Positions 2,733 to 62,750 are shown, numbered from the stretch's first letter. The stretch is DNA of 64,000 bases from Escherichia phage KIT01 (AP019521.1), one strand, 5' to 3'. Made by a program: numbers and translations. Notes: generated by a model not told the origin, from the sequence alone.

Positions 2733-2751
2733 ATTCTCACCTCTAGATAAT

Positions 2752-6191: not shown

Positions 6192-6230
6192 AATATTACC
6201 TTTTGTTTAGGAATTAGGTTTATTCTCCAT

Positions 6231-7329: not shown

Positions 7330-7333
7330 TTTG

Positions 7334-7385
7334 TTCTCCTCATGTTGATAGGGTAGATAATATCATGTCATGAGGAGAAGTAAAC
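7334..7385 (-). promoter_or_regulatory. early promoter/stem-loop cassette (PeSL-like)
   Basis: gtaaac 7380-7385, 17-nt spacer, -10 at 7357-7362; 11-bp perfect inverted repeat 7334-7344 / 7369-7379 pairing the SD with the promoter spacer. Confidence 0.6.
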
Positions 7386-10683: not shown

Positions 10684-10697
10684 CTTACGGACGATTA

Positions 10698-10738
10698 GTT
10701 GATATGTCTATAGTATCAAGTTACTCGATAAAGTAAAC
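10698..10738 (-). promoter_or_regulatory. early promoter cassette
   Basis: gttgatatgtctatagtatca core; gtaaac 10733-10738; 17-nt spacer. Confidence 0.55.
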
Positions 10739-11422: not shown

Positions 11423-11445
11423 ATTATTCTCCTCAGTTGATAGAA

Positions 11446-11477
11446 AGATAGTACCACAAGCTTCCTTGCCTGTAAAC
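11446..11477 (-). promoter_or_regulatory. early promoter cassette
   Basis: gtaaac 11472-11477 with gttgatag...atagta core upstream of modA-like gene. Confidence 0.5.
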
Positions 11478-12046: not shown

Positions 12047-12061
12047 ATGACCTCCAGTGAT

Positions 12062-12099
12062 TTAGAGGTCATTATAACATGAAGGGAGGAGGTGTAAAC
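12062..12099 (-). promoter_or_regulatory. early promoter
   Basis: gtaaac 12094-12099, 17-nt spacer, TATAAT (plus attata 12071-12076) upstream of modB-like gene. Confidence 0.55.
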
Positions 12100-13685: not shown

Positions 13686-13891
13686 AGGAAACCTCGTTTA
13701 AATTCAACTTTATCGATATCATCAGTCTCGTGACGGATTTCGGCATTAAATTCGATAGAACCGTCTTCATGCATCATAAATGAATGGACGATAACTTCGG
13801 TATACCAAGGAGTATAAAAGTACTTTTTCAATACATGGTTAGCGATAATTTCATCCAAAGTTTTATTAGGTTTAATCCAACGATTTAACAT
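13682..13891 (-). CDS. hypothetical protein
   Basis: start set at MLNRWIK after GAGGAG SD. Confidence 0.4.
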   Translation of the reverse strand: MLNRWIKPNKTLDEIIANHVLKKYFYTPWYTEVIVHSFMMHEDGSIEFNAEIRHETDDIDKVEFKRGFL

Positions 13892-13954
13892 AGTGTTCTC
13901 CTCTATAAGGTAAGACCATCTTAACACAACCTTCCTAGAAAGTAAACCCTTAAA

Positions 13955-13982
13955 ACGAAAAAAGGAACCCGAAGGTTCCTTA
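13955..13982 (-). terminator. intrinsic terminator after soc
   Basis: minus GGAACC-UUCG-GGUUCC followed by UUUUUU. Confidence 0.6.
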
Positions 13983-13985
13983 TAA

Positions 13986-14219
13986 TTAAACTACTGGGGT
14001 CGGCGTGAACATTGCTGCGTTCTTAGTTCGCCAATCGGCTGCATCAGTTACTACAGTAGTGTAGGCTGCAACGGCCGAAGGAAAAGTCTGATAGTGTGCA
14101 TTTGCAATACGATGCTCGTTTGAATAGATTTCAAACGGGACTGACACTTCAACACCTTTAACTTCTTTACCTTCACCTGCTGGATGCGTAAAGGTTTTGA
14201 TATTAACGAAACCACCCAT
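13986..14219 (-). CDS. soc: small outer capsid protein Soc
   Basis: 77 aa; GFVNIKTF...AHYQTFPS...AAY matches T4 Soc; late promoter TATAAATA upstream and terminator hairpin downstream. Confidence 0.85.
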   Translation of the reverse strand: MGGFVNIKTFTHPAGEGKEVKGVEVSVPFEIYSNEHRIANAHYQTFPSAVAAYTTVVTDAADWRTKNAAMFTPTPVV

Positions 14220-14248
14220 AATTAACTCCTTTGTTGTTTAATTACAGG

Positions 14249-14260
14249 TGTATTTATAAC
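14249..14260 (-). promoter_or_regulatory. late promoter TATAAATA for soc
   Basis: plus tatttata at 14251-14258 = minus TATAAATA about 30 nt upstream of soc ATG and AAGGAG SD. Confidence 0.55.
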
Positions 14261-14782
14261 TTAATATCCTCGGTCTTGACGAGCAAAGTTCTCGGCATTT
14301 TTCAGATAATACAACTTAAAGATTTCTTCAGCAGTCAGACCAAGGCCTTGGAACATATTCAGAACAAAGTGCAGAATATCAATCATCTCGAATTTAATCT
14401 CGAGCTGGTCTTCAGGAGACAAATCGTTAATCAGGGTTTCACGACGTTCAGCATGTTGAGCTTTCCAAGGCTTCCATACTGCAGATGCATCTTTTTCACC
14501 ATTGCTCATACCGCCAAGAGAAGTCAGAAGTTCACGGAATTCGTCATCAATATAATCTTTCTGATTACGCAGCCAATCAACAACTTCACCTGCAGTGGCC
14601 AAATCATCAGGATGACGGTTATATTCAGGTTTATCTTTAGCCAAACGGACCTGTAATGATTTCTGCATATCAAGCATAACCTGCAGAGGGTCTTTATCTT
14701 CGTGAATCAGAGCATTAAAATAAGCTTCCTCAGCTTTATCAACACCTGCAATCAGTTGAGAACATTCATTAAAATGAGCCAT
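14261..14782 (-). CDS. 56: dCTP/dCDP pyrophosphatase (MazG-like)
   Basis: start at MAHFNEC as in T4 gp56; DPLQVMLDMQ, EIFKLYYLKN..ENFARQDRGY C-terminus matches T4. Confidence 0.85.
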   Translation of the reverse strand: MAHFNECSQLIAGVDKAEEAYFNALIHEDKDPLQVMLDMQKSLQVRLAKDKPEYNRHPDDLATAGEVVDWLRNQKDYIDDEFRELLTSLGGMSNGEKDASAVWKPWKAQHAERRETLINDLSPEDQLEIKFEMIDILHFVLNMFQGLGLTAEEIFKLYYLKNAENFARQDRGY

Positions 14783-17147: not shown

Positions 17148-17433
17148 CTGTCACCTCTTTAACGATATTTTTGTTATCGAAATTGGCATCACAATACAAA
17201 ACATAGTTATATTGCATAACACCACCTGAAGCTAATTGGTCTGACACTTCTTTAGCCATATCAGGGCGGTCACGTTTAGTGATGTTCATGATATCAGCAT
17301 AAATCTGATGTTCGACTGATTCTTGGTCTGCAGTCATAGACCATTCACAAAGGTCTTTATCCAATCCGGCAGTTACCGGAGCTGTGCCACATGATGCTAC
17401 TGTAAGGATTGCTGCGATTAATAACTTTTTCAT
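17140..17433 (-). CDS. secreted/periplasmic protein, spackle-like by size and position
   Basis: 97 aa; signal peptide MKKLLIAAILTVASC; T4 sp is also a 97-aa periplasmic protein near gene 61 (memory-based). Confidence 0.45.
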   Translation of the reverse strand: MKKLLIAAILTVASCGTAPVTAGLDKDLCEWSMTADQESVEHQIYADIMNITKRDRPDMAKEVSDQLASGGVMQYNYVLYCDANFDNKNIVKEVTGE

Positions 17434-17444
17434 AATGTTCTCCT

Positions 17445-17491
17445 CGGTAGTTGATAGGGGTAATATACTACATTACCCCTTTGATGTAAAC
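17445..17491 (-). promoter_or_regulatory. early promoter cassette
   Basis: gtaaac 17486-17491; gttgatagg core; ggggtaat / attacccc inverted repeat around -10. Confidence 0.5.
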
Positions 17492-17697: not shown

Positions 17698-17892
17698 TTA
17701 GATTTCCTTAATACGTGCATCATGTTCATAAACTTCTACGTCATCAACATAGGCCTTGACTAGAATGCCATTGATTTCAGCGAATTGAGTGGCCACCCAC
17801 ACAATATCATTTTCAGGTACTGAAGCTTCTTTGGTAGTGGTATCATCATTATTAAAACAGCATACAAATTCTACCTTAACCAATTTGGACAT
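17698..17892 (-). CDS. hypothetical protein, tandem paralog 2
   Basis: 64 aa; KLVKVEFVCCF...VKAYVDDVEVYEHD. Confidence 0.45.
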   Translation of the reverse strand: MSKLVKVEFVCCFNNDDTTTKEASVPENDIVWVATQFAEINGILVKAYVDDVEVYEHDARIKEI

Positions 17893-18222
17893 TTAGATTT
17901 CCTCACAGAAGGCCCATTCAGCATGATAAACCGTAGCGCCTTTAGTATCATTTAAACAAACCACGTCTACCGGAGCAATTACACGATAAAGACGAGGTTC
18001 TCCTCCCACTGAACGGGCTGCACGTCCAGCATAAATCTTAGCCAAACCGATATCTTCAGTAAAGAACACACGATTCAGGTTTTTCTTACGACCAGTTTCA
18101 GACAGAACTCCTGTCTCCTCAGGAGGACAAAGCATATTACCGATATTAGCAACACTACAACTTCCGTGGTAATACACTTTATATTCTGCTTTACAATCGA
18201 TGGTTTTCATTTTGTTCTCCAA
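17893..18222 (-). CDS. hypothetical protein
   Basis: 109-aa ORF behind early promoter cassette. Confidence 0.45.
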   Translation of the reverse strand: MENKMKTIDCKAEYKVYYHGSCSVANIGNMLCPPEETGVLSETGRKKNLNRVFFTEDIGLAKIYAGRAARSVGGEPRLYRVIAPVDVVCLNDTKGATVYHAEWAFCEEI

Positions 18223-18263
18223 GTTGATAAGTCTATAGTATCATGCCTATAGGGGATGTAAAC
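18223..18263 (-). promoter_or_regulatory. early promoter cassette
   Basis: gttgataagtctatagtatca core; gtaaac 18258-18263; 17-nt spacer. Confidence 0.55.
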
Positions 18264-18271
18264 CCTTAAAA

Positions 18272-18297
18272 TCAAAAAAGGAGCCGAAGCTCCTTAA
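18272..18297 (-). terminator. intrinsic terminator after gene 41
   Basis: minus GGAGC-UUCG-GCUCC followed by UUUUUU; overlaps stop codon. Confidence 0.6.
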
Positions 18298-19733
18298 AAT
18301 TTGATAGATGCTGCTAAATCGTCCAAATCACTTCTATTAACACGCGTCTGTCGATTGACCTCGGCTTGGCGATTCATCTCACCTGTAGCCTCACGAACGG
18401 TGTTCACTGGGCCAGGGTTGGAATCGTCTTCAACTTCATACCAACGTTGATTTCCTTTCTTAACGCCAATCTTAAATTTGTTGTAGTAGCTCTTATCGCC
18501 ATAACGAGATTTAAGCTGCTTAACCATCTGCATACCCATCTGAGCAAACTCTTCTGTCTCGACCACACCTAACATGAAGTCTGCAGTATGCGCAATACCA
18601 AAGGATTCAGCAATATCAGCCATATCGATTTCTGCCGCAACGTTCGCGCCACGAGTAGTCTGGGCTGCCGTCCACAACAATAATTTCTTCTCTACTGCCA
18701 GTCCACGTAGTTCTTCGGCAACCATCTTAATCAATCCGTAACTGTTTTCAGAGAAAACTTTAGTACGAGACGATGCACAGATGGCCAAGTAGTCGACGAT
18801 AACAACCTGTGGGACAAAGTTTTGTTTGAGCTTGTATTCGTTTAATAATGCTCGAAACGTATCGGCATTAGCACCACCGGTAGGATACTGTTTAATCTTT
18901 AAACGACCTAAGGTAGCAGTTGAACGCCATTTATCCATCTTAGCTTTATATTCAGGCCACGAGACATGACCATCATCGATATCATCCAGTGACACGTCCA
19001 GAAGGTTGGCATCGATACGCTTAGCACATACTTCCTCTGCCATCTCCATGGAAATATAAAGAACATCGTATCCGGATTGAAGGTAATCAGCAGCCAATGA
19101 ACACAGTCCAAGAGACTTACCTACGTTTGTTCCTGCTAACAATACGTTTTCAGTACCAAACTCGGCACCGCCCTTGGTAATCTTATTCAGAATATTAAGA
19201 CGGAATGGAACCTTACGTGCTTTATCGGAATAACTTTTGAATCGTTCTTCATAGTCATCCATCCAGTCATGACCTAATTCAGAATCGAAACAAATCGATA
19301 ATGCATCACGCATGATATCTGGAATAGCACCAATACCTGGAAGTTTTCTATTTTGTTGCTCAACCGGAAGGTCGGCATTAGTTTGGATTTCAATGATTTT
19401 TGAAGTTGCATTATACATCGCTGCTTTCTGAACGTATTTCTCCGTCTCTTTAACCAACCATTCTTGGTCTTCAGGTCCGGCATTCAGTGAACTTAAAAGC
19501 TCTTTAGCGCCTTGGTGTTCAACTTCTGAAAGCGTACTGTTATCTAATGCAATGCTTAATGCGTTCTTAGAAGGCACTGCATTATATTCATTGACGTGTT
19601 TTTTAATTTCTTTGAAAAGGGTCTTTGCAGGACCCTGGTCAAAATATGAATCATTCATATAAGGCCAGACCTTAGTGAAATAATCACTATTGCCTAGCAG
19701 TTGAGCCAAAATAGTTTCTACCACTTCCACCAC
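18294..19733 (-). CDS. 41: replicative DNA helicase (DnaB-like)
   Basis: 479 aa; Walker A GTNVGKSLG, near-collinear with T4 gp41. Confidence 0.9.
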   Translation of the reverse strand: MVEVVETILAQLLGNSDYFTKVWPYMNDSYFDQGPAKTLFKEIKKHVNEYNAVPSKNALSIALDNSTLSEVEHQGAKELLSSLNAGPEDQEWLVKETEKYVQKAAMYNATSKIIEIQTNADLPVEQQNRKLPGIGAIPDIMRDALSICFDSELGHDWMDDYEERFKSYSDKARKVPFRLNILNKITKGGAEFGTENVLLAGTNVGKSLGLCSLAADYLQSGYDVLYISMEMAEEVCAKRIDANLLDVSLDDIDDGHVSWPEYKAKMDKWRSTATLGRLKIKQYPTGGANADTFRALLNEYKLKQNFVPQVVIVDYLAICASSRTKVFSENSYGLIKMVAEELRGLAVEKKLLLWTAAQTTRGANVAAEIDMADIAESFGIAHTADFMLGVVETEEFAQMGMQMVKQLKSRYGDKSYYNKFKIGVKKGNQRWYEVEDDSNPGPVNTVREATGEMNRQAEVNRQTRVNRSDLDDLAASIKF

Positions 19734-26146: not shown

Positions 26147-26379
26147 TGTTTAACAATAATGATTTGTGCGTTTGATTTACGTTCAGCGACGATAGCCCAG
26201 ATTAAAGCCACTACCCAACCAATCATCGTCCAGCCTAACAGAAGATTAAGGAAGAAAATTCCGACATTACTACGAGTGCCTCGCAGAAGAGCCAGAATCC
26301 ATGGTAAAAAGTAACCGATGAACATAATAGCCAGAGAACCAAATCCTAAAACACCAGCACTAACGATTAAAGCTTCCAT
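26143..26379 (-). CDS. imm: superinfection immunity protein Imm-like membrane protein
   Basis: 78 aa, two hydrophobic helices, LLGWTMIGWVVALIWA motif; position between 42 and 43. Confidence 0.55.
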   Translation of the reverse strand: MEALIVSAGVLGFGSLAIMFIGYFLPWILALLRGTRSNVGIFFLNLLLGWTMIGWVVALIWAIVAERKSNAQIIIVKQ

Positions 26380-26394
26380 TGTAATTTCCTCATG

Positions 26395-26439
26395 TAGTTG
26401 ATAGGAAGGATACTACCACGTTCCATGTGGTATGTAAAC
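26395..26439 (-). promoter_or_regulatory. early promoter cassette upstream of imm
   Basis: gtaaac 26434-26439; gttgatagg core. Confidence 0.5.
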
Positions 26440-32845: not shown

Positions 32846-33562
32846 ATGAATTATAAATCAATATACGAAAAGCTTATTCAACGAGCAGTTAATAGAAATT
32901 TAACTACCTATAAAGAACGTCATCACATTATACCACAATGCATGGGTGGGACGGATGACGCTTTAAACTTGGTAGACTTAACACCTGAAGAACATTACTT
33001 GGCTCATCAGTTGTTAGTTAAAATCCATCCAGATAACGCATCGTTAGTCTACGCAGCAAGAATGATGACAGTTAGCTCACCAAAAGCTGATAGGTCTAAA
33101 AATAAATTATTTGGATGGCTTCGTCGTAAGAATTCAGAAGCCCAAAAGGATAAAGAATTCTCTGAAGAAACCAGAAAGAAAATGTCAATTTCTGCTTTAA
33201 AAAAGCCTAGAGTTACCTGTCCACACTGCGGCAAAACTGGATTGGTAGGCAATATGAACAGATGGCATTTCGATAACTGCCCTAAAGGCCCTAATAAAGT
33301 GGACCGCTCTATATCTGAAGAGCAAAAATTAAAAATAAAGAAAGGCCTAGAAAACATGGTCTATAAAATTGTGGAATGTGAATTCTGCGGCCTTTCAGGA
33401 AAATCCTGTGTTATTGCCTCTCATAAAGTTTTTTGTAAGAAAAATCCTAACGGGCGCAAAAAAACAGAAAAGAAGGTAGAATGCCCTCATTGTGGTAAAC
33501 AAGGGAATTCCGGTAATATGAATCGTTGGCATTTCGATAACTGTAAAATGAAGCCTCAATAA
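32846..33562 (+). CDS. free-standing HNH homing endonuclease with repeated zinc-finger modules
   Basis: ATG at 32846 after AAGGA; HNH core HHIIPQCMGGTDDALNLVDLTPEEHYLAHQ; three CxxC..C modules, two near-identical (CPHCGK.G..GNMNRWHFDNC). Confidence 0.8.
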   Translation: MNYKSIYEKLIQRAVNRNLTTYKERHHIIPQCMGGTDDALNLVDLTPEEHYLAHQLLVKIHPDNASLVYAARMMTVSSPKADRSKNKLFGWLRRKNSEAQKDKEFSEETRKKMSISALKKPRVTCPHCGKTGLVGNMNRWHFDNCPKGPNKVDRSISEEQKLKIKKGLENMVYKIVECEFCGLSGKSCVIASHKVFCKKNPNGRKKTEKKVECPHCGKQGNSGNMNRWHFDNCKMKPQ

Positions 33563-35500: not shown

Positions 35501-36519
35501 CGTGTAACCTCATTATAAAGTTGCGCGGCCATAGTCTTAAGGGCTTTAACATCATCTTCAGTGTGGCCGTCAGGAAGGGCATCGATATAATCATACATCA
35601 TATCCAAGAGGGACTTAACTTCATCTTCCTCTTCAGAATCATCGATATCAACACTGTTATCTACCTTAGACACAATACGTAAAGAATGGACAACCTTTTC
35701 AAGCTCTGATTCGAACTTAGTAAGTCCATCATCGATTTTATCGACTATAACACGAACTGCGATATTTGTAAAATCTTTGTAATCGATAGTCGCATTTGGA
35801 TAATGAATCTTACGGTGCCAACAGGTTTCATTGATGATGAAATCCATCTTATGAGTTTCTGTATCGAAAATCCAGAAGCCGCGAGGGTCATTCTCATCAC
35901 CTGCAGTTAGGGTCCAGGGCGTACCAATATACTTAACGTTTGCTGCATCAGAAATAGTGTGGAAGTGGCCTGACCAAACCTGCTTATATCTCTTAAGGAA
36001 ATCAGGTTCTAAACCATGGGATTTCATTCCTTTATAGAAATAGAAACCATTTAATTCCCAGTGACCTATACAGAAATCTGCCGTGGTATTTTTGATATGG
36101 TCCATGATATCAGTCGTGTTTTCTTCACACATCCATGGAATCAAATCAATTTCGGTGCCATCAAAATTAACAGTAGTAGGTTTCTCGTAAACAGTAAAAT
36201 TTTCATACTGAGTAAGAAGTTCAGAAACTGCATTAGGAGTTATGCTATTTTTAAACGTTGCATCATGGTTACCAATTATAACATGGACTTTAATACCTGC
36301 ATCGCTGATAATTTCCACCAGACCACGATTAAATTCCATACATTTATGGGTGATAGCCTTGCGTACATCGAACCAATCACCATATTGAATCCATGTATCA
36401 ATATTGTTTGCTTTAGAATATTCTACAGCCTGTTTAATACCGTTAAGCTGGATTTTCTGAATCCAAGGGTCATCGGCTTTTACTCCGATATGCAAATCAC
36501 CTATATTCAAAATTTTCAT
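35497..36519 (-). CDS. 47: recombination endonuclease subunit (Mre11/SbcD-like)
   Basis: 340 aa; phosphoesterase motifs GDLHIG, GNHD, GHWE matching T4 gp47. Confidence 0.9.
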   Translation of the reverse strand: MKILNIGDLHIGVKADDPWIQKIQLNGIKQAVEYSKANNIDTWIQYGDWFDVRKAITHKCMEFNRGLVEIISDAGIKVHVIIGNHDATFKNSITPNAVSELLTQYENFTVYEKPTTVNFDGTEIDLIPWMCEENTTDIMDHIKNTTADFCIGHWELNGFYFYKGMKSHGLEPDFLKRYKQVWSGHFHTISDAANVKYIGTPWTLTAGDENDPRGFWIFDTETHKMDFIINETCWHRKIHYPNATIDYKDFTNIAVRVIVDKIDDGLTKFESELEKVVHSLRIVSKVDNSVDIDDSEEEDEVKSLLDMMYDYIDALPDGHTEDDVKALKTMAAQLYNEVTR

Positions 36520-37370
36520 AATCTACCTTTATAATGTATTTCACTATTAAATTCTATCTCAGAAATCATAAAGCTTTTTATGCCGTCATTAGCCCAGATT
36601 TTCTTAGGTCTAGTAATTGTAACTGTAGGCTTAAAAATTTTATAAACCAAATTGTGATAATTACCATCCATAAAACCTTTAGCTAAAGCTATTTCTCTAA
36701 ATTTATACGGTGGCAAAAATCCAGTAGAAATCCAAAGCTCTTTTAATTCTTTTTGAATATCAGGGTCATATATCCCATCGGTCTTTTTCAAGTTTTTCTT
36801 ATGTTCATCGGTTAGAAAACTGCCAAGGACCCAAGATTCAGGTTGTTTTCCTTCTACAAATAATCCTTTATCAACGCCATTGTTATACCACTTCTTACCC
36901 TTATTATGACTAGATGCTTTATAATTAGGAGAACGACCTTCTACGTATCCTTCGGGGACTGTAGGTGCAAAGGTTTGTTCTAATGTAACAGGATTATAGG
37001 AATGAATATATCCTTTGGCATTATGAGAGCCATAAAGAGGGTGTTGCTCTTTAGGTAGCGAAAGCCCAAAGAATCCTTTAGGAGCGGCGACAGCCCTATT
37101 AAAGAATAGAGGATTTTGGGCTGCGTCAGTTCTTAACTGGTACATTCTTTCAGCTTCTAAAGCCTCTTCTCTTGTAGGGTGTTCGCTTACAATACACGAG
37201 TCGAATAATTCAGGATGCTCTAAAAGCTCATTTTTATATATTTCTTTATATGCTTTAGAAAGGACACTCCCGTGATACCCTTTCAAATGCTTCTCCAAAG
37301 TGGTAGACCCTATATAAAACGGTGGAAGCTTAGTCCCGGAATATATTGTCAGGTATGTGATGTATTTCAT
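36516..37370 (-). CDS. GIY-YIG homing endonuclease (Seg-like)
   Basis: 284 aa; N-terminal YITYLTIYSG...FYIGST, conserved R and E (EALEAER); sits where T4 has 47.1/alpha-gt. Confidence 0.7.
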   Translation of the reverse strand: MKYITYLTIYSGTKLPPFYIGSTTLEKHLKGYHGSVLSKAYKEIYKNELLEHPELFDSCIVSEHPTREEALEAERMYQLRTDAAQNPLFFNRAVAAPKGFFGLSLPKEQHPLYGSHNAKGYIHSYNPVTLEQTFAPTVPEGYVEGRSPNYKASSHNKGKKWYNNGVDKGLFVEGKQPESWVLGSFLTDEHKKNLKKTDGIYDPDIQKELKELWISTGFLPPYKFREIALAKGFMDGNYHNLVYKIFKPTVTITRPKKIWANDGIKSFMISEIEFNSEIHYKGRL

Positions 37371-37396
37371 AGATTTATTTTATCATCCATTCAGAA

Positions 37397-39504: not shown

Positions 39505-39830
39505 TTCGCTGCCTTAACAATTTTCAGGTCAACGAATTTTTTCTTACGTTGGTTTTTCATACGACGGATAGTTTTATCCGTGATTTCACCAGGGGCCCAA
39601 GCTTTAGATTCAACACCAAATGCAGCGACATCGAATTCATCAAGGATATATTGAACCAGGATTTCACGAATACCGTTCTTACCAATTTTCTGGTCTTTAG
39701 AGTGCATGATTGGTAATAGTTCAGCAACCCATTGGTCAAGAACCTGAGGAGTTACAAAACCGGTTTTCATCAGTTCGTTTACTTTATCGAAAGCGAAAGA
39801 GTTCAGTACGTTTTTAATAGCTTGTGACAT
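39501..39830 (-). CDS. hypothetical protein
   Basis: start set at MSQAIKNV after GAGGAAA SD, downstream of early promoter cassette. Confidence 0.4.
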   Translation of the reverse strand: MSQAIKNVLNSFAFDKVNELMKTGFVTPQVLDQWVAELLPIMHSKDQKIGKNGIREILVQYILDEFDVAAFGVESKAWAPGEITDKTIRRMKNQRKKKFVDLKIVKAAK

Positions 39831-39864
39831 AATAATTTCCTCAGTTTTAAAGTTATAATCCGTA

Positions 39865-39899
39865 GGACCATTATACTCTGGTCCCAAGAGTTTGTAAAC
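39865..39899 (-). promoter_or_regulatory. early promoter cassette
   Basis: gtaaac 39894-39899; -10 TATAAT flanked by ggacca/tggtcc inverted repeat. Confidence 0.5.
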
Positions 39900-40099: not shown

Positions 40100-40231
40100 T
40101 TAAATTTTCCAATTGCCATTTTCATCAATGAATTTAACCCAGTCATTTACTGACCACTTGGTTGTATCGCCTTTTGGACTAACATTTAAAGTGTATAGTC
40201 CTTGCTTAAAAAGCATTCGTTTGATATTCAT
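40100..40231 (-). CDS. small hypothetical protein (43 aa)
   Basis: start MNIKRML after GAGGAAAAT SD. Confidence 0.3.
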   Translation of the reverse strand: MNIKRMLFKQGLYTLNVSPKGDTTKWSVNDWVKFIDENGNWKI

Positions 40232-40238
40232 ATTTTCC

Positions 40239-40532
40239 TCAGCTGTAACGATAACACTCGTTTGATTTACGTTTTGCAACTTGATGAGAAGTATTGTAAT
40301 CAGGTTCATCGTCGTTGTAAACATCTTTTTTCAGCTTTCTCACTTCTTTACGAAGTTGGCGATTCATTTCATTCTTAACTTCAGAGTCAACGCCTCTCAT
40401 ACGTTTCCACTTGTCGGAACGGAAGATATTTTCTTCAACCAAATCCTGACTTACGCCGACCGGTGCTTTACGACGTCCGGAATAATAAAAATCTTTTACA
40501 GACAATTCTTTACGACGAATAGTTTTACCCAT
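40239..40532 (-). CDS. hypothetical basic protein
   Basis: 97 aa, Lys/Arg-rich. Confidence 0.4.
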   Translation of the reverse strand: MGKTIRRKELSVKDFYYSGRRKAPVGVSQDLVEENIFRSDKWKRMRGVDSEVKNEMNRQLRKEVRKLKKDVYNDDEPDYNTSHQVAKRKSNECYRYS

Positions 40533-40789: not shown

Positions 40790-40968
40790 AATTTGATTTC
40801 CTTAGCTATTGAACAAAACACGCTACGGTCACATACCATCATTGGAATATTTCTATGGTCTAGTACACGATACCATACGTCTGAATCGCTAGCAGCAATT
40901 ACACGAACCGCACGCCCATTTACCAAATAATACTGGTCGGCTTTAATTTCTTTATCTTGGATAGTCAT
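40786..40968 (-). CDS. hypothetical protein
   Basis: 60-aa ORF behind early promoter cassette. Confidence 0.4.
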   Translation of the reverse strand: MTIQDKEIKADQYYLVNGRAVRVIAASDSDVWYRVLDHRNIPMMVCDRSVFCSIAKEIKL

Positions 40969-40971
40969 AAT

Positions 40972-41026
40972 GTTCTCCTCATGTGTTGGTAGGATAGACT
41001 ATAACACGTGAGGAGAGGAAGTAAAC
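40972..41026 (-). promoter_or_regulatory. early promoter/stem-loop cassette
   Basis: gtaaac 41021-41026; arms cctcatgtgtt / aacacgtgagg (1 mismatch) pair SD with spacer. Confidence 0.55.
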
Positions 41027-42949: not shown

Positions 42950-43238
42950 CAGAATACCTCATCAGAAAAGCGAAGTTGAGCTTCAAGCCAATGGATATAG
43001 TCAGCGGCAGCTTTAATCAAATCGGATTCTAGGTCAGGTAAAGAACCTGAATCCGACAACTCGTAAAGCGAATGTTCAATCAGACGGCCCTTATGACGGC
43101 CAACTTCAATTTTGGTACTCATATCCAAACTCCATATCGATTAAATCATTGTTTGAAGGTTCATTATACTCTATTTCGGAATCATTGTAAACCGGTTCCT
43201 CTGGCTCGGTAGTTTCCCACCGAGCGACATACCATGGC

Positions 43239-44689: not shown

Positions 44690-45696
44690 TTCAGCAGCTC
44701 CAGAGCCTGTTCAAGACGGTCTAAACGATTGGTAGACTCTTCCCAAAGTTTCTTGGCAGCAGTATATTGCCCGGTCAGTTTTTTGTTGATAGCAAGGGCA
44801 TCTTTATACGCTTTTTCTAAGGCAACGACTTCTGGTAACTTGGATTTAGTAATTGGTGTAGGGGCCATGATAGGGCTGTTCAAGTCGTTAATCAAGTCTT
44901 CTAATGTAGCAGGCTCTTTATCAGTGTTCACAATTTCCTCACATTTTTCTTGGTAAATTTCAGCATCAGTTTTTGGAACGGTATATTTGATTTCACGGAC
45001 TGTTACTAAAACTTCATATCCTTTCCAGCCTAAGTGGTGTTTAACTTCTTGGGTCTCATATTTCTCTACGGTATCCATCAGAGCTAAAGCTTGTTCGATA
45101 GTATTCAAGGTATCGTAAGCAATATCTTGATACTTTACAACTTCCGCATCATCTTTAGGTTTCCTATTAGGTGACCAAATAACAGAAATAATAGCTTTTC
45201 CTTTATAACTATTTGTTTTAATCATGCAATTAGCCAGCGGGTGAATAGTACGACAATCACCGGAAACTATAGTTTTAGAGGCCGCTTTGAGAATTAATGC
45301 AGAGTTAGCCTTGAATTCGCTAACCCAACGTTGCGGAAATAAACTACTAGGGTCCATACCTTTAATTTTGACATAATCTTTTATGGTATCACCAAACCAT
45401 TTGTAGCTAACAACATGGCTAGAACCCGGATATTTCTCTTTACCGAACTCAGAAAGGATGTCCTTATTGACCAGACGCGAAAGAAGTCGAGAACCTTTAA
45501 ATGTATCTACGATATCAGAAATAAACAAACGGCCTGCGATCTTTTCGATTTCAGCTTTGAAACAGCGCGATAATGCATCATCAATTTGGTCGACCCATTT
45601 ATTGATATTAGAAACTATTACCACATATGGGGTTAATGGAGGGGTGTTGGCAGTGATATACGTAGTAAAGGCATTGATGTATTCAGTACGAGTCAT
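44686..45696 (-). CDS. hypothetical protein with C-terminal coiled coil
   Basis: 336 aa; tail ...[14 protein letters not shown]. Confidence 0.45.
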   Translation of the reverse strand: MTRTEYINAFTTYITANTPPLTPYVVIVSNINKWVDQIDDALSRCFKAEIEKIAGRLFISDIVDTFKGSRLLSRLVNKDILSEFGKEKYPGSSHVVSYKWFGDTIKDYVKIKGMDPSSLFPQRWVSEFKANSALILKAASKTIVSGDCRTIHPLANCMIKTNSYKGKAIISVIWSPNRKPKDDAEVVKYQDIAYDTLNTIEQALALMDTVEKYETQEVKHHLGWKGYEVLVTVREIKYTVPKTDAEIYQEKCEEIVNTDKEPATLEDLINDLNSPIMAPTPITKSKLPEVVALEKAYKDALAINKKLTGQYTAAKKLWEESTNRLDRLEQALELLK

Positions 45697-45704
45697 GATA
45701 TTCT

Positions 45705-45752
45705 CCTCAAGTTGATAGAAAGATTATACTCCATCCATCCTTGGATGTAAAC
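45705..45752 (-). promoter_or_regulatory. early promoter cassette
   Basis: gtaaac 45747-45752; TATAAT; gttgataga core. Confidence 0.5.
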
Positions 45753-47763: not shown

Positions 47764-48288
47764 TTATGCGAGAACCGTCTTTAAACGCTCTTCAAATTTC
47801 TGAAGCAGAGCTTGGCGTTCAGCTCGTTGTGATTTGTACTGCTCGATACGACCTGAAGTGAGGGCGTACTGTTCGTTTACTGATTCCCGCATGAATTCAG
47901 GAATCTCTTTACAAGCTTTGATTTCGTCAAACTTATCAATAACAGCTTGTTGTTCAGCAATCAGATTATCGAAATAAGCGATATCAGATTTAACGTTTGC
48001 CAGGTCGGATTCGGTAGGCATTAAACGTTTGTTACGTTCAGCTTGATAAGCCTGATTGGTTTCACGACTCCAGTGAAGAGTACGTTTTTTGTTAGTGTTT
48101 TTATAGAGCTCTACAATACCAACTGAATCGATGACTGCAATCCAGTTCCAACGGCTTTTGTAAATCTCTCCTCCGGATACGGTAATCTCATTACCACAAG
48201 CAACATCGTTAAAGAACTTGCTTTGTTTTTCAGATTTGAAATTACCGTTGTTGAAATTAATCAGTGAAAAAATATCTTTAGCGTTCAT
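47764..48288 (-). CDS. hypothetical protein with C-terminal coiled coil
   Basis: 174 aa; tail ...RAERQALLQKFEERLKTVLA. Confidence 0.45.
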   Translation of the reverse strand: MNAKDIFSLINFNNGNFKSEKQSKFFNDVACGNEITVSGGEIYKSRWNWIAVIDSVGIVELYKNTNKKRTLHWSRETNQAYQAERNKRLMPTESDLANVKSDIAYFDNLIAEQQAVIDKFDEIKACKEIPEFMRESVNEQYALTSGRIEQYKSQRAERQALLQKFEERLKTVLA

Positions 48289-48294
48289 GATAAC

Positions 48295-48343
48295 CTCCAG
48301 TAGTTGATAGGTCTATAGTATCATTTCTACTGGAGATGTAAAC
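48295..48343 (-). promoter_or_regulatory. early promoter/stem-loop cassette
   Basis: gttgataggtctatagtatca core; gtaaac 48338-48343; 9-bp arms ctccagtag 48295-48303 / ctactggag 48327-48335. Confidence 0.6.
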
Positions 48344-48345: not shown

Positions 48346-48687
48346 CTAATAGAAACTTTTTTCACCTGATTGTCCACTAAACCATGCGGATTGGGTATTC
48401 TCTTTCCGTTGGTGTTCGATACGAATGCGATATTCATTCCTGATGGCGCAGAGTTCACCTCGGAAGTCGCCTACCAACTTTACCTGCTTATGGTCTAGAT
48501 TTATTAAGGCTTGGGTCTTCGCTGCCAAGAGCAGTCTCCTGTAGTCTCCTTCTTCACAATCAGTTTTATAAACTCTATTAGTATATCCGTCGACAACTTC
48601 TTTATCATAGTCCTCGACAGACTGTTTCATGGCTTTAGAAAAAGTCTGACCTGCGTTAAAAAGATTGTAAATAAATTGTTCAAACAT
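48346..48687 (-). CDS. hypothetical protein
   Basis: 113-aa ORF. Confidence 0.4.
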   Translation of the reverse strand: MFEQFIYNLFNAGQTFSKAMKQSVEDYDKEVVDGYTNRVYKTDCEEGDYRRLLLAAKTQALINLDHKQVKLVGDFRGELCAIRNEYRIRIEHQRKENTQSAWFSGQSGEKSFY

Positions 48688-48696: not shown

Positions 48697-49678
48697 TTAT
48701 TTCAGAAGGGTAACTTCAGCGATTTCGCTCCAGTCATTTTTATCGGTGGCAATGAAGTCCGCCAGATAAAGAGCTGTACGTAATGATACGTTACGAAGAC
48801 GAGATACATTAGCCTTCATCCATGCTAAAGCTTGATAAGTCTCAGCATCAGTCAGACCTCGATTTTGCATCATATCAGTGGACAGGATAACGTCTTCAAC
48901 ACGAACCATAATCTCTTCGTTAGAGTGAACTCCGAGGTCTAAGTAAACTGAACGAGATACTAAAGCCTGGAGGTGTGGAGCAAGTTTAGTTCCACGCTCT
49001 AATTCACGGTCGATATCAACGTTGGTGATGAACACGATGGTGCCTTCGTATTCAAATTCTTTATCGATATTTTTATCATCGAGGTAAGAACTTGAAGTGC
49101 TCCAGCACACCTTACGTTTTTCACCTGTATCCAATGCCGCTTTTAACAGGTTCAGGATATCCATATCAGAGAATACATCAACATCATCAATAAGAAGAAC
49201 ACTATTAGGGCCGCGGTTATTCCAAAGCTGCTCGTAAAGACCGATTCCACTAATCTTTCCGTTGATTGATTTATATTCGATAGTTTCATTTTCGTGGGCA
49301 TTTTGTAATGCTTTATCCAAAGAATACGTTTTACCAATACCTGCGGCACCAGAGATGATAAGGGAACGAATTTTACCATCGATGATTCCGTTGGTCATCA
49401 TGTTCATTACTTTAAAACGTTTGTTAATGCGATGTTTCATTTCTTCAGCGGATTCAGTAACCATTGCAGGAGCTTCAGCACCTTCCATTTCAACGTCACA
49501 TTTGAACACCCATACACCACGTTCAACACCATCAATCTGTACGAATACCTTGCCATCACCGAGGTGAGCTTCGGATTCATGAATTTTGTTAGGGAACCAG
49601 GTTTTACCTGAACTCATGAACGTACCAGAGATTTCATTACCGCGATAGATGCCTTTGTTGATTTTGATAGTTAACATT
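48697..49678 (-). CDS. AAA+/P-loop ATPase
   Basis: start set at MLTIKINKG after GGAG SD and downstream of promoter -10; Walker A GAAGIGKTY, Walker B VLLIDDVD. Confidence 0.6.
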
Positions 49679-49699
49679 ATATTCTCCATTTCACTCAGT

Positions 49700-49743
49700 A
49701 GATTTGATAGGTCCATAATAACATGCTCTACGAGAGTGTAAAC
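49700..49743 (-). promoter_or_regulatory. early promoter cassette upstream of AAA+ ATPase gene
   Basis: gtaaac 49738-49743, 17-nt spacer, TATTAT. Confidence 0.5.
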
Positions 49744-49760
49744 TCTTTTTTGCACTAAAC

Positions 49761-49784
49761 CCAAAAAGGCCCGAAGGCCTTTTA
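49761..49784 (-). terminator. intrinsic terminator after nucleotidyltransferase-fold gene
   Basis: minus GGCC-UUCG-GGCC followed by UUUUU. Confidence 0.5.
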
Positions 49785-52330: not shown

Positions 52331-52567
52331 TCACCAGTATTTGTTGATAGTAGAAATTAATTCTTGGGCTTGGGTAGTCTTCAGTTTACATCCACAACCC
52401 TTTAATGTGTCTTTAAGGAGCCACGGTTCCTTGAGCTCGTCCTTTTCTAGACGAATTCTGTATCCTCGATAATCGGCGAAGATACTTCGGTCGTCGAATA
52501 TCTTAATCTCAAGGATACGGCCATTGATTTCGTATTCTAATGAAACCGTAGTACTCGTAAGTTTCAT
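52331..52567 (-). CDS. hypothetical protein
   Basis: 78-aa ORF behind early promoter cassette. Confidence 0.4.
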   Translation of the reverse strand: MKLTSTTVSLEYEINGRILEIKIFDDRSIFADYRGYRIRLEKDELKEPWLLKDTLKGCGCKLKTTQAQELISTINKYW

Positions 52568-52576
52568 ATTGTTCTC

Positions 52577-52624
52577 CTCATTAGTTGATAGGTCTATAGT
52601 ATCATGTTCCTAGAGGATGTAAAC
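52577..52624 (-). promoter_or_regulatory. early promoter cassette
   Basis: gttgataggtctatagtatca core identical to 48303-48323; gtaaac 52619-52624. Confidence 0.6.
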
Positions 52625-52631
52625 ACCTAAA

Positions 52632-52662
52632 CGAAAAAAGGTCCCACCGAAGTGAGACCTTT
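52632..52662 (-). terminator. intrinsic terminator
   Basis: minus GGUCUCAC-UUCG-GUGGGACC followed by UUUUUU. Confidence 0.55.
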
Positions 52663-56028: not shown

Positions 56029-56487
56029 TTAAAGATAGATTACTTTCGTGCTGGTTTTACCTTCTAAACGTTTAGAGTTAACAAATGCCATACGACATTT
56101 AAGGGAATATCCTTTATCAGGATGTTTACGGTCTACGGTCATACCCAACCATAAGGTTTTATCGGTAATTTCGAGACGCAACGGGCGATACACTTTACCA
56201 GGGACAATTTCGGATTCAACATCAGGCAGAGGTTCCTGGATTAAGAATTCATGAATTTCTTTAACATGGATATGGAGTTGCTTGAATAAAGCAAAAACGT
56301 ATTTTTCGTCGATTTCACGTTGGATAGCACGGTCCAACAAGTGATTAGAGTACTTAATAAAGAAGGCTGGGACTCCGCTCTTAATGGCGGCTTTTTTGAT
56401 GGACGCATTCAGTTCACGGAATTCGGTTTCGAACTGACGACGTAATTTGTTGCGGCGGATGAATACTTCTGAATTAATTTCTGACAT
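56029..56487 (-). CDS. regB: endoribonuclease RegB
   Basis: 152 aa; EVFIRRNKLRR.FE.EFR..N, HLLDRAIQREIDE.YVF, RLEITD..LWLG matches T4 RegB. Confidence 0.9.
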   Translation of the reverse strand: MSEINSEVFIRRNKLRRQFETEFRELNASIKKAAIKSGVPAFFIKYSNHLLDRAIQREIDEKYVFALFKQLHIHVKEIHEFLIQEPLPDVESEIVPGKVYRPLRLEITDKTLWLGMTVDRKHPDKGYSLKCRMAFVNSKRLEGKTSTKVIYL

Positions 56488-56493
56488 TTTGTA

Positions 56494-56544
56494 ATCTCCT
56501 GTAGATGATAGGTCTATAGTACCACGTCTACAGGAGATGTAAAC
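56494..56544 (-). promoter_or_regulatory. early promoter/stem-loop cassette upstream of regB
   Basis: gtaaac 56539-56544; 12-bp perfect inverted repeat 56494-56505 / 56527-56538 containing the regB SD. Confidence 0.6.
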
Positions 56545-58021: not shown

Positions 58022-58321
58022 TTAGAAAGAACCAGAACCTTTAATTGTGTTCTGACGACCTTTATTTTCCAATTCGGAGTGGTCGATTTCATATGCTTGT
58101 GCTACGCCAAAGGCCTTTTTAACTTTAGCTAAAGAACCTTTAGATGTAACAATATTAAAAGTATTACCTTTGGTAAAATCAACCAAATCCACTTGTACAC
58201 CCTGCTTGCCGAGGCTTGCTACAATAGCATCAACATATTGTTGGTCTAAAGTACCTTGGACGCCAATTTGAAATGCTTTAGGAGCTTTGGCTTCTGTAAT
58301 AAATTCTTGATAAGTTTTCAT
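58022..58321 (-). CDS. internal protein (IP-like) with capsid targeting sequence
   Basis: N-terminus MKTYQEFITEA = T4 IP capsid-targeting leader MKTYQEFIAE. Confidence 0.7.
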   Translation of the reverse strand: MKTYQEFITEAKAPKAFQIGVQGTLDQQYVDAIVASLGKQGVQVDLVDFTKGNTFNIVTSKGSLAKVKKAFGVAQAYEIDHSELENKGRQNTIKGSGSF

Positions 58322-58329
58322 ATTAAGCC

Positions 58330-58689
58330 TTAAAGATGGTCTAGTGCTGGGTTATGAGGTTTTTCTGCTTTAGTAGTGTTTTTATGCCAATCTGATTTAG
58401 AAACACGGATGGCATCAGCGCCATAAGAACTCTTAAGGAGACCTTTTTTATTGTACACGCTTATTGAAGTAAGAGAATCACCATTCCATGTAGCATGAAT
58501 GAAGTTAGATTTAGATTTAAGTTCTTTAGCCAAGCTCTGGTTAGTGGCCATGGAAGCAAAGTCTTTACCTGTAACTTTAAAAACTTCAGATGGGTTCAGC
58601 CCTTCTTTAGCCTTAGCCAATTGTTCAGGAGACATAGCTTCGTTAATGCGCTGAGTAGATTCAGTAATAAATTGTTGGTAAGTTTTCAT
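58330..58689 (-). CDS. internal protein (IP-like) with capsid targeting sequence
   Basis: N-terminus MKTYQQFITES. Confidence 0.7.
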   Translation of the reverse strand: MKTYQQFITESTQRINEAMSPEQLAKAKEGLNPSEVFKVTGKDFASMATNQSLAKELKSKSNFIHATWNGDSLTSISVYNKKGLLKSSYGADAIRVSKSDWHKNTTKAEKPHNPALDHL

Positions 58690-58731
58690 ATTATTCCTTA
58701 AGTTGATAGAAGTATTCTATCACGGATTTAA

Positions 58732-59148
58732 TTAAGCGTAAATAGCCTTGCCGTAATGTTTGTACCAGGTAGGACGCTGTGCAATTTTTTCGTCCAAACG
58801 GGCTTGTGAAATGGCGATAGAAGCTTCGTGTGGAGTATAATCACCACGGAATTCCTGAGGAATATCACTAATGTCCTGGACCGTAGTATCCTTGATATTA
58901 AAACCACGTTTTAAACATTCCGCTATAAGCTCGATTTGACGTTTACGTAAAAACTCAAGCTTATCATAAAAGAAAGTAACATGGCCTGTACCAAGGATAA
59001 AAGTAGAGCTAATTTTAAAATCACGAACACGTTTACCATTAGCAACATGCTTACGAACTGCACCGAAAACACGTGGCAATTCACGATATTCAGCCATTAA
59101 GTGTTGGTCAGCCAATTCAGATACTAAGGTAAGGTTGATACGAGTCAT
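58732..59148 (-). CDS. denV: endonuclease V (pyrimidine dimer DNA glycosylase)
   Basis: start set at [34 protein letters not shown], essentially identical to T4 endo V; 138 aa. Confidence 0.92.
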
Positions 59149-59208
59149 TTTAGTGTTCTCCATGTTTGTATGAGAACACTATATCACAGCTATTGTAAAA
59201 GTAAACTG

Positions 59209-59511
59209 TTATTTAGCTTTAATTGCTTTAGCTGCTTCGGTAGCCGCTTGCTGAAGGTCATCCATAGACATACCGAACTTAGAAGCAAAGTTATCAATTT
59301 TCTTTTCGACAGAATTCAAAGGCTTGGCCTGTTTACCTTCATTAGCGCCCGGGAGAGCGAGAATACGCTCTTTGTCAATATAAAGGCTTACAAGTTTCTT
59401 ACGGTCTTTATCCGACAAATCATGAAATGAATGGGCCTTTTTATTTACAGCGGCTTCTAATTTACCTGCGGTTACGCGGGCTTCAGTGATAAATTCTTGA
59501 TAGGTTTTCAT
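59209..59511 (-). CDS. internal protein (IP-like) with capsid targeting sequence
   Basis: N-terminus MKTYQEFITEA. Confidence 0.7.
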   Translation of the reverse strand: MKTYQEFITEARVTAGKLEAAVNKKAHSFHDLSDKDRKKLVSLYIDKERILALPGANEGKQAKPLNSVEKKIDNFASKFGMSMDDLQQAATEAAKAIKAK

Positions 59512-59559
59512 ATGTTTCCTTAAAGGTAAATATTTTAATTGGTATGTTCAAGTAACTGT

Positions 59560-59592
59560 AGATATACTATCACAATTCTAGGAGATGTAAAC
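59560..59592 (-). promoter_or_regulatory. early promoter upstream of IP-like gene
   Basis: gtaaac 59587-59592, 17-nt spacer, TAGTAT. Confidence 0.5.
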
Positions 59593-59991
59593 TTATTTGT
59601 AGGTTTTCATCCAATTCTTGAACAAAGCCGCGACGTCTTTCTCTTTAACGTTCAGTTTAACGTCCAACATTTTACCACCCGCTGCTCTCGTTTGGCGAAT
59701 CTTAGCAGTACCGGTTTCACCATTCCACTCAACATAATACTGTCCAGTGTTCATTGCAATACCATCACCATAGTCTTCATTTTTAGAAGTGGTGAATGCC
59801 AGCTTCATAGTCTTAGATACACGAGCCTGCATGCCTGTCTGAAGGGCATTACGAACTCGAATAACCTGAGGAGTGGCCTGGGTCAGGTTCTCATTCAGTT
59901 CTTCAGTGAACTCTTCGGATTCGAACATCGCCAAAAGTTCTTTAGATGCAGGAATTACATTCTCTGCGATAAATTCATTATAAGTTTTCAT
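59593..59991 (-). CDS. internal protein (IP-like) with capsid targeting sequence
   Basis: N-terminus [11 protein letters not shown]. Confidence 0.7.
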
Positions 59992-62469: not shown

Positions 62470-62682
62470 TTACTTTTTGTTGAAAAAGTACATTTTACCT
62501 TTAGGAGATAAGGATACACGAAGTGCGTTACCAATACCAACTGAACATTTAACCAGGTCAGCAGATTTCAATTCACCAAATGCTTGACGAAGGTCACCAT
62601 CACGAGTGTTAACCATCAGGCATTTAGCACCAGCTGCACGAACTTCGTTTAACATGTTGATTGCTTGGTTAGAAAGTTTCAT
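62470..62682 (-). CDS. hypothetical protein
   Basis: start set at MKLSNQ after GGAGAA, downstream of promoter cassette. Confidence 0.4.
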   Translation of the reverse strand: MKLSNQAINMLNEVRAAGAKCLMVNTRDGDLRQAFGELKSADLVKCSVGIGNALRVSLSPKGKMYFFNKK

Positions 62683-62704
62683 TTTATTCTCCATTTCACT
62701 CTGT

Positions 62705-62750
62705 TGTTTTGATAGGTCTATAGTATCACACCTATAGACCTTGTACACTG
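62705..62750 (-). promoter_or_regulatory. early promoter cassette, variant -35
   Basis: ttgataggtctatagtatca core; -35 reads GTGTAC rather than GTTTAC. Confidence 0.4.

Follow-up and report, generated by a model that had tools for sequence, protein, structure and literature searches.

A family of early-promoter cassettes in the early region of Escherichia phage KIT01 and a possible translational role for a subset of their stem-loops

The stretch of DNA analysed here (referred to as the window; 64,000 nucleotides of Escherichia phage KIT01, AP019521.1) harbours at positions 48295–48343 a short sequence which recurs many times. The original prediction took it for a copy of the promoter-early stem-loop (PeSL) cassettes known from T4-type phages. 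This raises the questions of what these repeats are, why they resemble each other, and whether they shape the expression or the exchange of the genes between which they lie. Over 8 kb, the window is 92–95% identical to Dhakavirus genomes (WG01, QL01, IME08, JS10, Bp7, MX01 and others), with WG01 as the top match over these 8 kb (94.7%). JS98 displays only 96.6% identity to the window over the flagged cassette, so that the window belongs to a genus member other than JS98. The window covers the early genes of a T4-type coliphage resembling JS98 and WG01, and almost all of them lie on the minus strand. The order annotated in relatives is rIIA-39-motB-dexA-dda-srd-modA/B-...-43-...-55-nrdC-...-tk-vs-regB-denV-ip-e, and gene names (motB, srd, modA/B, imm, regB, denV etc.) were assigned by synteny with these relatives. 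BLAST analysis of the flagged cassette returned 388 T-even-type phage records, with 10–14 places per Dhakavirus genome and 1–3 per Tequatrovirus genome.

The recurrence of the core is beyond what base composition would yield. The plus-strand 20-mer TTGATAGGTCTATAGTATCA has 7 matches in the window at up to 3 mismatches, versus 0.00 expected from 100 dinucleotide-preserving shuffles; three copies are exact (48304, 52585 and 62709), and four carry 1–3 mismatches (10699, 18224, 56505 and 49704). The 21-mer repeat announced by the original prediction is thus real, and all twelve positions listed there (12/12) fall on a minus-strand promoter-like cassette, albeit with coordinates off by 1–4 nt. Read on the minus strand, the 20-mer consists of TGnTACTAT, i.e. 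an extended −10, and a conserved start region AGACCTATCAAC. The looser pattern TANNNT-N3-CCTATCAA, with at most 1 mismatch, is found 13 times in the window, 12 times on the minus strand, versus 1.9 expected in total. A scan for GTTTAC-N16–18-TANNNT, in which up to 1 mismatch was allowed in GTTTAC, displays 27 sites with a perfect GTTTAC on the minus strand and 0 on the plus strand. A Shine-Dalgarno sequence (SD) and an ORF start within 80 nt downstream are found at 24 sites, all on the coding strand; this set of 24 cassettes includes two added by hand (10738 and 6266). Cassettes are also named here by the coordinate of their −35-side end, so that 48343 denotes the flagged cassette at 48286–48343. 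A generic sigma-70 scan was discarded as sole detector, being too noisy (71 sites versus 56 expected in shuffles). That the repeats are chance or low-complexity matches has a negligible probability, given the 7 matches against 0 expected, the complete strand bias, the fixed position upstream of ORF starts, and the retention of the elements in nine genomes and in T4.

Each cassette is a unit of ~58 nt on the minus strand, made of an A-tract, GTTTAC (−35), 17 nt, the −10, SD and ATG. Along the coding strand the consensus order is an A-rich tract, GTTTAC, 17–18 nt, TGn plus TAnnnT, (a)gaCCTATCAAC, SD GAGGAG, and ATG, which in sigma-70 register reads TTTACA-N16-TGnTACTAT. Alignment of the 24 cassettes on the −10 displays information peaks at the upstream A-tract (consensus aaaaA at −8 to −4 relative to the −35), GTTTAC, TG, TAnnnT and the CCTATCAA region; the last of these, cCTATCAAC at 4–11 nt after the −10, was unexpected. 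Three components of a PeSL are present: an A/T-rich tract upstream of the −35, sigma-70-type −35/−10 elements at ~17 nt spacing (in 24 cassettes), and, as the 3′ end of the cassette, the SD and ATG of the gene that follows. The sequence features of T4-type early promoters are likewise found, namely GTTTAC, a TGn extended −10, a UP-like tract and a location upstream of prereplicative genes. T4 early promoters have been described as 'UP/-35/TGn/-10' promoters with additional consensus regions (Hinton, 2010; PMC2988021); the UP-like A-tract, GTTTAC, TGn, the −10 and further consensus positions are common to both, and the window promoters fit this description, with extra consensus positions.

On this sequence evidence, the repeats are very probably immediate-early promoters of a T4-type phage (genus Dhakavirus), set in compact intergenic cassettes, and the flagged 20-mer is the extended −10 and start region of the copies nearest to the consensus. 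Host sigma-70 RNA polymerase would start at the A of CCTATCAAC, ~7 nt past the −10, during the first minutes of infection; all transcription starts given here are predicted from the position of the −10. The start region CCTATCAAC is present in about 12 of the 24 promoters of the window. We know of no sigma-70 contact that explains its conservation downstream of the −10, and this counts against the immediate-early promoter explanation. One might suppose instead that CCTATCAAC, together with a CTATAG palindrome, is bound by some factor of phage or host origin, e.g. a putative early-promoter shut-off factor, and does not form part of what the polymerase recognises. The information at +4 to +11 after the −10 is indeed as high as in the −35, no known sigma-70 contact accounts for it, and the shut-off of T4 early promoters is 'not completely understood' (PMC3014915). 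However, only about half of the cassettes carry CCTATCAAC, and the same scan applied to the first 50 kb of T4 found 13 minus-strand promoters, only 1 of them with CTATCAAC. Hence, CCTATCAAC, present in that 1 of 13 T4 promoters, is not required for early-promoter behaviour in general, and we judge a factor-binding site to be quite improbable. The start-region variant has spread in Dhakavirus (about 12/24 versus 1/13 in T4). In terms of annotation, the immediate-early promoter explanation yields a map of 24 early transcription units in the Dhakavirus early region, and it accounts for a conspicuous repeat without invoking a mobile element.

The flagged cassette (48286–48343, minus strand; GTTTACATCTCCAGTAGAAATGATACTATAGACCTATCAACTACTGGAGGTTATCATG) extends from the −35 to the ATG of an nrdC.8-like gene (47764–48288), with the minus-strand layout GTTTAC-ATCTCCAGTAGAAATGA-TACTAT-AGACCTATCAACTACTGGAGGTTATC-ATG. 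The −35 GTTTAC (sigma-70 register TTTACA) was located by promoter scan at 48338–48343; this is the plus-strand GTAAAC that the original prediction had placed ~17 nt from the core, and it lies 17 nt from the −10 hexamer at 48315–48320. The extended −10, TGA-TACTAT, occupies 48315–48323, where the sigma-70 scan flags the TG before the second hexamer. Motif counts and consensus delimit the 20-mer core, extended −10 plus start region AGACCTATCAA, to 48304–48323; from the position of the −10, transcription is predicted to begin at the A at ~48308. RNA folding (−18.3 kcal/mol, z = −3.6) displays a hairpin whose 5′ arm ATCTCCAGTAG (48327–48337), an anti-SD sequence, lies in the promoter spacer upstream of the predicted start, and whose 3′ arm CTACTGGAGGT (48293–48303) holds the SD GGAGG. 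The gene just upstream of the cassette (48346–48687, minus strand) matches DUF7203 (Pfam, E = 4.7e-30). This is the only Pfam hit among the flanking ORFs; the nrdC.8-like downstream gene has no Pfam match.

The claim of near-identity holds for a core of 20–23 nt, but over 50 nt paralogous cassettes are only 50–86% identical and share consensus elements alone. Orthologous cassettes in relatives, in contrast, are mostly 90–100% identical over 50 nt, apart from the swapped loci described below. These values argue against pervasive concerted evolution, and they suggest that the similarity is mainly that of a vertically inherited promoter consensus: the likeness among copies would be caused mainly by shared functional constraint on very strong promoters, each inherited vertically at its locus. 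Occasional recombination within short shared tracts would in addition swap cassette halves together with the ORFs attached to them.

The cassettes differ considerably in their secondary structure. When they were folded from −35 to ATG, 12 of 24 displayed a hairpin spanning or abutting the promoter, and fold z-scores for eight cassettes identified significantly stable hairpins in five (48343, 56544, 7385, 41026 and 62748; z = −2.8 to −5.4) and none in 52624, 18263 and 10738, so that three of the six near-identical copies are without a significant hairpin. The arms vary between cassettes yet match within each. As SD-closing stems are not in register across cassettes, cognate and non-cognate arms were compared by permutation: the duplex energy of spacer and post-−10 sequence is −10.5 kcal/mol for cognate versus −7.3 kcal/mol for non-cognate pairs (p=5e-5). 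Such an excess of cognate-arm pairing is also found in ten T4 promoters (p=0.016).

Three layouts can be distinguished, all on the minus strand. The first has the 5′ arm right after the −35 and the 3′ arm with the SD. It comprises the flagged cassette, the motB.2 cassette (7327–7385; 11-bp SD-closing hairpin TTCTCCTCATG/CATGAGGAGAA, z = −5.4), the cassette of a 55.6-like gene (40966–41026; SD-closing, z = −4.7) and the regB promoter cassette (56485–56544; 12-bp SD-closing hairpin ATCTCCTGTAGA/TCTACAGGAGAT, z = −4.6), and in weaker form the nrdC.10 promoter cassette (49743) and the exact-core cassette 52624. The second layout is a tight stem around the −10 in which the SD is not involved. This was seen by scan and folding for cef (5548–5608) and motB (6189–6266; GAGAGCCAT/ATGGCTCTC), by folding and alignment for sp (spackle; 17431–17491; GGGGTAAT/ATTACCCC), and further for the 55.2 cassette (39828–39899) and for an exact-core cassette with the −35 GTGTAC (62680–62748; AGGTCTATAG/CTATAGACCT, z = −2.8). 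The third has the 5′ arm in the −10/discriminator, from where it pairs with the SD: in the modB cassette (12044–12099) the arm GACCTC follows the −10, ahead of the predicted start, and has the SD GGAGGTC as its pairing partner, and the denV cassette, termed 'type X' from comparison with relatives and T4 (59146–59206), follows the same plan. The SD is part of the 3′ arm, and the predicted start lies inside the loop, in six cassettes, or in seven on a looser count.

Terminators upstream of the promoter are found at five cassettes. Four have a UUCG loop: mrh.2 (13889–13947), a cassette with 1 core mismatch (18208–18263), nrdC.10, where the terminator is bidirectional (49764–49783, within the unit 49675–49783), and 52624, where an intrinsic terminator at 52637–52662 precedes the cassette (unit 52565–52662; exact core 52585–52604; gene 52331–52567). 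A similar one, the terminator-like GGGCCTTCGGGCCC hairpin, precedes the cassette at 2730–2779. The UUCG-loop terminators sit 12–21 nt upstream of the −35, and 49743 has both a hairpin and an upstream terminator, while 8 of the 24 cassettes have neither. The terminators form a second repeated module, in which a UUCG-tetraloop terminator is followed by TTTTTTCGTTTTAAGG and then by the −35 (13947–13990, 18263–18305, 49743–49783, 52624–52662 and 2779–2805); this corresponds to the layout with a terminator just upstream of the promoter in PST/T4 PeSLs. Rfam at gathering thresholds gave no match anywhere in the window. A separate observation concerns the spacer of the 2779 cassette (window 2745–2765), which is wholly different in IME08 and JS10 although the −35, the −10 and the flanks are unchanged, the replacement being confined to 13 nt.

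The catalogue of cassettes further comprises, again on the minus strand, the srd promoter (10669–10738; 1 core mismatch, hairpin not significant), two internal-protein gene cassettes found with the help of alignment (59509–59592, and 58687–58743 with the −35 ATTTAC), and three looser copies found by promoter scan at modA (11420–11477), imm (26377–26439) and nrdC.4 (45694–45752). The scan also found a promoter-like site of 55.4 within upstream coding sequence (40229–40322), conserved in T4 (41261), and a promoter-like site at 43120–43192, likewise conserved in T4 (47452); for both promoters, at 40322 and 43192, T4 orthologs exist.

Regarding the function of the promoter-spanning hairpins, one possibility is that they act as terminators or attenuators of transcripts arriving from upstream, as proposed for the PeSLs of RB49/phi1, in which the stem-loop cut lacZ read-through to the level of a strong terminator (PMC2839356). 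The hairpins of the window are intergenic, as such a role would suggest. However, their 3′ arms are without a U-run and were not called by the terminator scan, canonical UUCG-loop terminators exist separately upstream of five other cassettes, and in six cassettes (seven on the looser count) the 3′ arm is the SD itself. The missing U-runs and the separate canonical terminators weaken the idea, and a terminator role for these hairpins seems unlikely to us.

We tentatively put forward, as a possibility that we hold at somewhat less than even confidence, that in a subset of these PeSL-type cassettes the stem-loops may be translational gates and not terminators. The anti-SD 5′ arm is situated ahead of the predicted start, in the spacer or discriminator of the promoter, so that RNA reading through from upstream would carry both arms; the cassette's own transcript would be without the 5′ arm, since the predicted start lies inside the hairpin loop. 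Read-through transcripts would then fold and hide the ribosome-binding site, and transcripts from the cassette's own promoter would be translated. Read-through from upstream early, middle or late promoters would remain silent for the gene in question, which would be expressed only as long as its own early promoter fires.

Computed opening energies agree with this proposal for a set of six cassettes. Opening of the SD..AUG region in 7385, 12099, 41026, 48343, 56544 and 59206 costs 11–20 kcal/mol in read-through RNA versus 2–5 kcal/mol in the own transcript, and 4–7 kcal/mol in shuffled-upstream controls. In the flagged cassette the values are 18.8 versus 4.0 kcal/mol, conserved in orthologs, and the difference between read-through and own transcript is kept in every ortholog that could be scored. 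The SD-closing set includes the flagged cassette, regB, modB, denV and motB.2. At denV, T4 and four Dhakavirus genomes, among them WG01, use a 5′ arm located in the spacer, TCTCCTGTAG. In the window and in three others, the arm lies in the −10/discriminator and is unrelated in sequence, TAGTGTTCTC; the two kinds of arm nevertheless pair with the same SD region.

A related geometry is known from the T4 genes e, soc, 49 and I-TevI, in which a late promoter lies inside a hairpin and SD and AUG are sequestered on long transcripts initiated upstream (Uzan and Miller, 2010; PMC3014915). The computed geometry of the window cassettes is the same, with SD/AUG paired in upstream-initiated RNA and free in RNA from the internal promoter. 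However, the internal promoter of the T4 genes is late (gp55, TATAAATA) and delays expression, whereas the promoter here is of the sigma-70 early type; the predicted effect is therefore confinement of translation to the immediate-early pulse. The window cassettes may thus work like this T4 family without being members of it. Immediate-early confinement fits the tight control that regB is said to need (PMC3014915).

Nevertheless, the evidence against a gating role is substantial. Among close orthologs, substitutions are as frequent in stems as in unpaired positions, with 9 pairs kept and 30 broken. A single compensatory change was seen (G-C to A-T in 17491 of MX01), and as most stem changes break pairs, the pair-by-pair test gives no support for selection on individual pairs. 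A preference for stem changes that form G-U pairs was considered and rejected (8 G-U-forming versus 15 A-C-forming changes). Averaged over all 24 cassettes, SD occlusion in read-through RNA is not above that in shuffled-upstream controls (Wilcoxon p=0.25). Gating of the SD is not the general role of these cassettes, since 8 of 24 have neither hairpin nor terminator and five hairpins are off the SD. If translational gating is nevertheless true for the SD-closing subset, the potentially harmful RegB nuclease, the ModB ADP-ribosyltransferase and DenV would be confined to the immediate-early pulse, and the rule of the late-promoter hairpin would apply, throughout the T-even phages, to early genes as well, T4 denV and dexA among them. 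The hairpin geometry suggests a simple rule by which translation is restricted to promoter-proximal transcripts. For the engineering of therapeutic T4-like phages, this would mean that read-through transcription leaves a gene placed behind such a cassette unexpressed.

PeSL cassettes have been described for RB49/phi1 (Arbiol et al., 2010; PMC2839356) and for PST/T4 and nt-1/KVP40 (Comeau et al., 2014; PMC4122927); phages of the JS98 type are mentioned in 2010 only in passing, for the g43 locus (PMC2839356). The window cassettes share with them the compact intergenic unit of A/T-rich tract, sigma-70-type −35/−10, SD and ATG, and many of them have stem-loops, whose position is either over or between the promoter boxes, like those of RB49/phi1, or directly upstream of the promoter, like those of PST/T4; the PST/T4 consensus TTTACW-N17-TAYWAT (PMC4122927) fits them. 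Also as in PeSLs, some ORF insertions, deletions and replacements have their junctions inside cassettes. On the other hand, the stems of RB49/phi1 are of the GGGG...CCCC type and those of the window are not, a third of the window cassettes is without a stem-loop, the association with indels is modest and not significant, and a subset of hairpins closes on the SD, a geometry that the PeSL papers do not discuss. The window elements belong to the known concept of PeSLs and T4 early promoters, and the SD-closing geometry is the sole aspect beyond the PeSL papers. The PeSL identity given by the original prediction is hence borne out as regards promoter, A-tract, SD and ATG, coding strand, and position directly upstream of ORFs. 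The promoter cassette stands; the repeated 21-mer is the −10/start region and not a stem-loop, and the hairpin is significant in only about half of the cassettes. A more distant likeness exists to lambdoid morons, single accessory ORFs with their own promoter and sometimes their own terminator, as here; morons are not bounded by conserved repeats, while the boundaries in the window have the promoter consensus in common (PMC2839356).

The T4 denV promoter GTTTACATCTCCTGTAGGTATGATACTATAGACCTATCAACTACAGGAG has the same core and the same hairpin as the flagged cassette. The T4 motB promoter (7181–7215 of the compared T4 sequence) and the Dhakavirus 55.2 promoter (window 39865–39899, minus strand), which are not at orthologous loci, have a 35-mer, GTTTACAAACTCTTGGGACCAGAGTATAATGGTCC, exactly in common. 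The motB gene of the window itself has a promoter (6266) with another core, one that forms a hairpin.

In order to follow exchange at the cassettes, the window was aligned (MAFFT) with WG01, IME08, JS10 and MX01 over 64 kb, with Bp7, C6, E33 and MN04 added over 32–64 kb. Junction repeats were sought by local alignment of the two junctions; the self-overlap artefacts which this gives at indels below 220 bp were ignored. The clearest case is the insertion hotspot at 49.7 kb, where the window, IME08, MX01 and Bp7 have a single cassette. In WG01 and JS10 an extra ORF (313 bp; 76 aa) is found there, with the cassette on either side of it as a direct repeat of 55 nt; in WG01 the ORF lies between two cassettes at 48.4–48.8 kb. 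E33 instead has a different ORF of 84 aa between two chimeric cassettes, the one with the resident 5′ half and a foreign 3′ half, the other with the foreign 5′ half and the resident 3′ half. Exactly this arrangement is expected from one crossover within the −10/core region. At the same hotspot (~49.75 kb), C6 (~17802–18557 of the compared sequence) and MN04 (~17779–18534) were found to have an antisense ORF of 251 aa with collagen-like Gly-X-Y repeats GPPGQKGDKGDPGNP, which adjoins the nrdC.10 cassette.

Further loci display exchange within or at the edge of a cassette. The 5′ half of the sp promoter exists in two alternative versions, preceded by different genes, and is swapped in WG01, IME08 and JS10 with the junction at CCTATCAAC. 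The denV gene is served by two alternative cassettes among the genomes, four relatives and T4 having 'type Y' with the flagged core. Bp7 and E33 have lost the internal-protein genes between two cassettes, and the junction of this deletion falls in a shared GTTTACATCTCCT in the spacer of the 59509–59592 cassette. Other indels lie at the −35 edge (12099, where a 230-bp gene upstream of the modB cassette is missing in JS10 and MX01, and 56548, at the 5′ edge of the regB cassette, where IME08, C6 and E33 have a 207-bp ORF) or between SD and ATG (52568, where IME08 has a 244-bp ORF inserted in the 52565–52662 cassette). Breakpoints at cassettes thus do exist in related genomes, the absence of which would have spoken against the shuffling proposed by the original prediction.

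Many indels, however, have no cassette at either end. Among 75 gene boundaries in 32–64 kb of the nine genomes (a count corrected for one spurious ORF), an indel junction is found at 8 of 13 with a cassette versus 22 of 62 without; this enrichment, for boundaries in 32–64 kb of nine genomes, is not significant (odds ratio 2.9, Fisher p=0.077). Indel breakpoints do occur at cassettes, but 22 of the 30 indel-bearing boundaries are without one. Counted as unique events of at least 60 bp, indels amount to ~0.4/kb at 0–20 kb (0.5 cassettes/kb), ~0.37/kb at 20–39 kb (0.05 cassettes/kb) and ~0.76/kb at 39–64 kb (0.5 cassettes/kb). Indel density is not tracked by cassette density, and cassettes alone do not mark a plastic region. 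The density around 44–63 kb, from which such a region had been deduced, is no higher than elsewhere, as cassettes occur at ~0.5/kb in both 0–20 and 39–64 kb.

These data also bear on the idea that the cassettes are primarily recombination modules, i.e. PeSLs in the strong sense of Arbiol et al. (2010), kept similar by frequent exchange and mini-circles and acting as the main driver of regional gene gain and loss. Mini-circles have been shown experimentally in RB49/phi1 (PMC2839356). In the present dataset the 313-bp ORF segment flanked by the repeated 55-nt cassette, the chimeric cassettes of E33, which have the form expected from a single crossover with an ORF-bearing circle, the alternative cassettes of denV and sp in different genomes, and the common 35-mer at non-orthologous loci of T4 and Dhakavirus all point in this direction. 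However, paralogs share only consensus elements at the identities given above, well below those of orthologs, repeated cassettes flank only 1 of the ~35 indels that reach 60 bp or more in the alignment of five genomes, most indel-bearing boundaries of the nine-genome comparison are cassette-free, and the regions 0–20 and 20–39 kb both have ~0.4 indels/kb despite a ten-fold difference in cassette density. Hence, we consider a primary role in recombination somewhat unlikely. The cassettes, as far as sequence alignment can tell, seem to be one class of module boundary and not the dominant one. In the context of phage evolution, T4-type lineages with promoter cassettes that sometimes delimit exchanged ORFs now number four, and the counts given above indicate that genes in this region are mostly gained and lost at ordinary gene junctions.

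Several variable loci were noted apart from the cassettes. The internal-protein genes (window 58307–59984) all begin with MKTYQ(E/Q)FI..., and their number and kind vary from one genome to the next in nearly all those compared; several junctions of indels fall in the repeat ATGAAAACTTATCAAGAATTTAT that codes for this N-terminus, and not in a promoter. An opposite-strand ORF of 238 aa (window 32846–33562, plus strand) is shared by the window with MX01 and Bp7, where it is annotated as a homing endonuclease. Six other relatives lack it, the difference being a clean indel of 772 bp; Pfam zinc-ribbon hits of this ORF are sub-threshold only. A segment of ~850 bp (window 36522–37373) with an ORF of 256 aa (36516–37286), which has no Pfam match, is absent or replaced in all relatives compared. 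In JS10 (14150–14694 of the compared sequence; window ~14258) soc is duplicated in tandem, and the junction repeat spans a late-promoter-like ATAAATA, the SD and the first soc codons.
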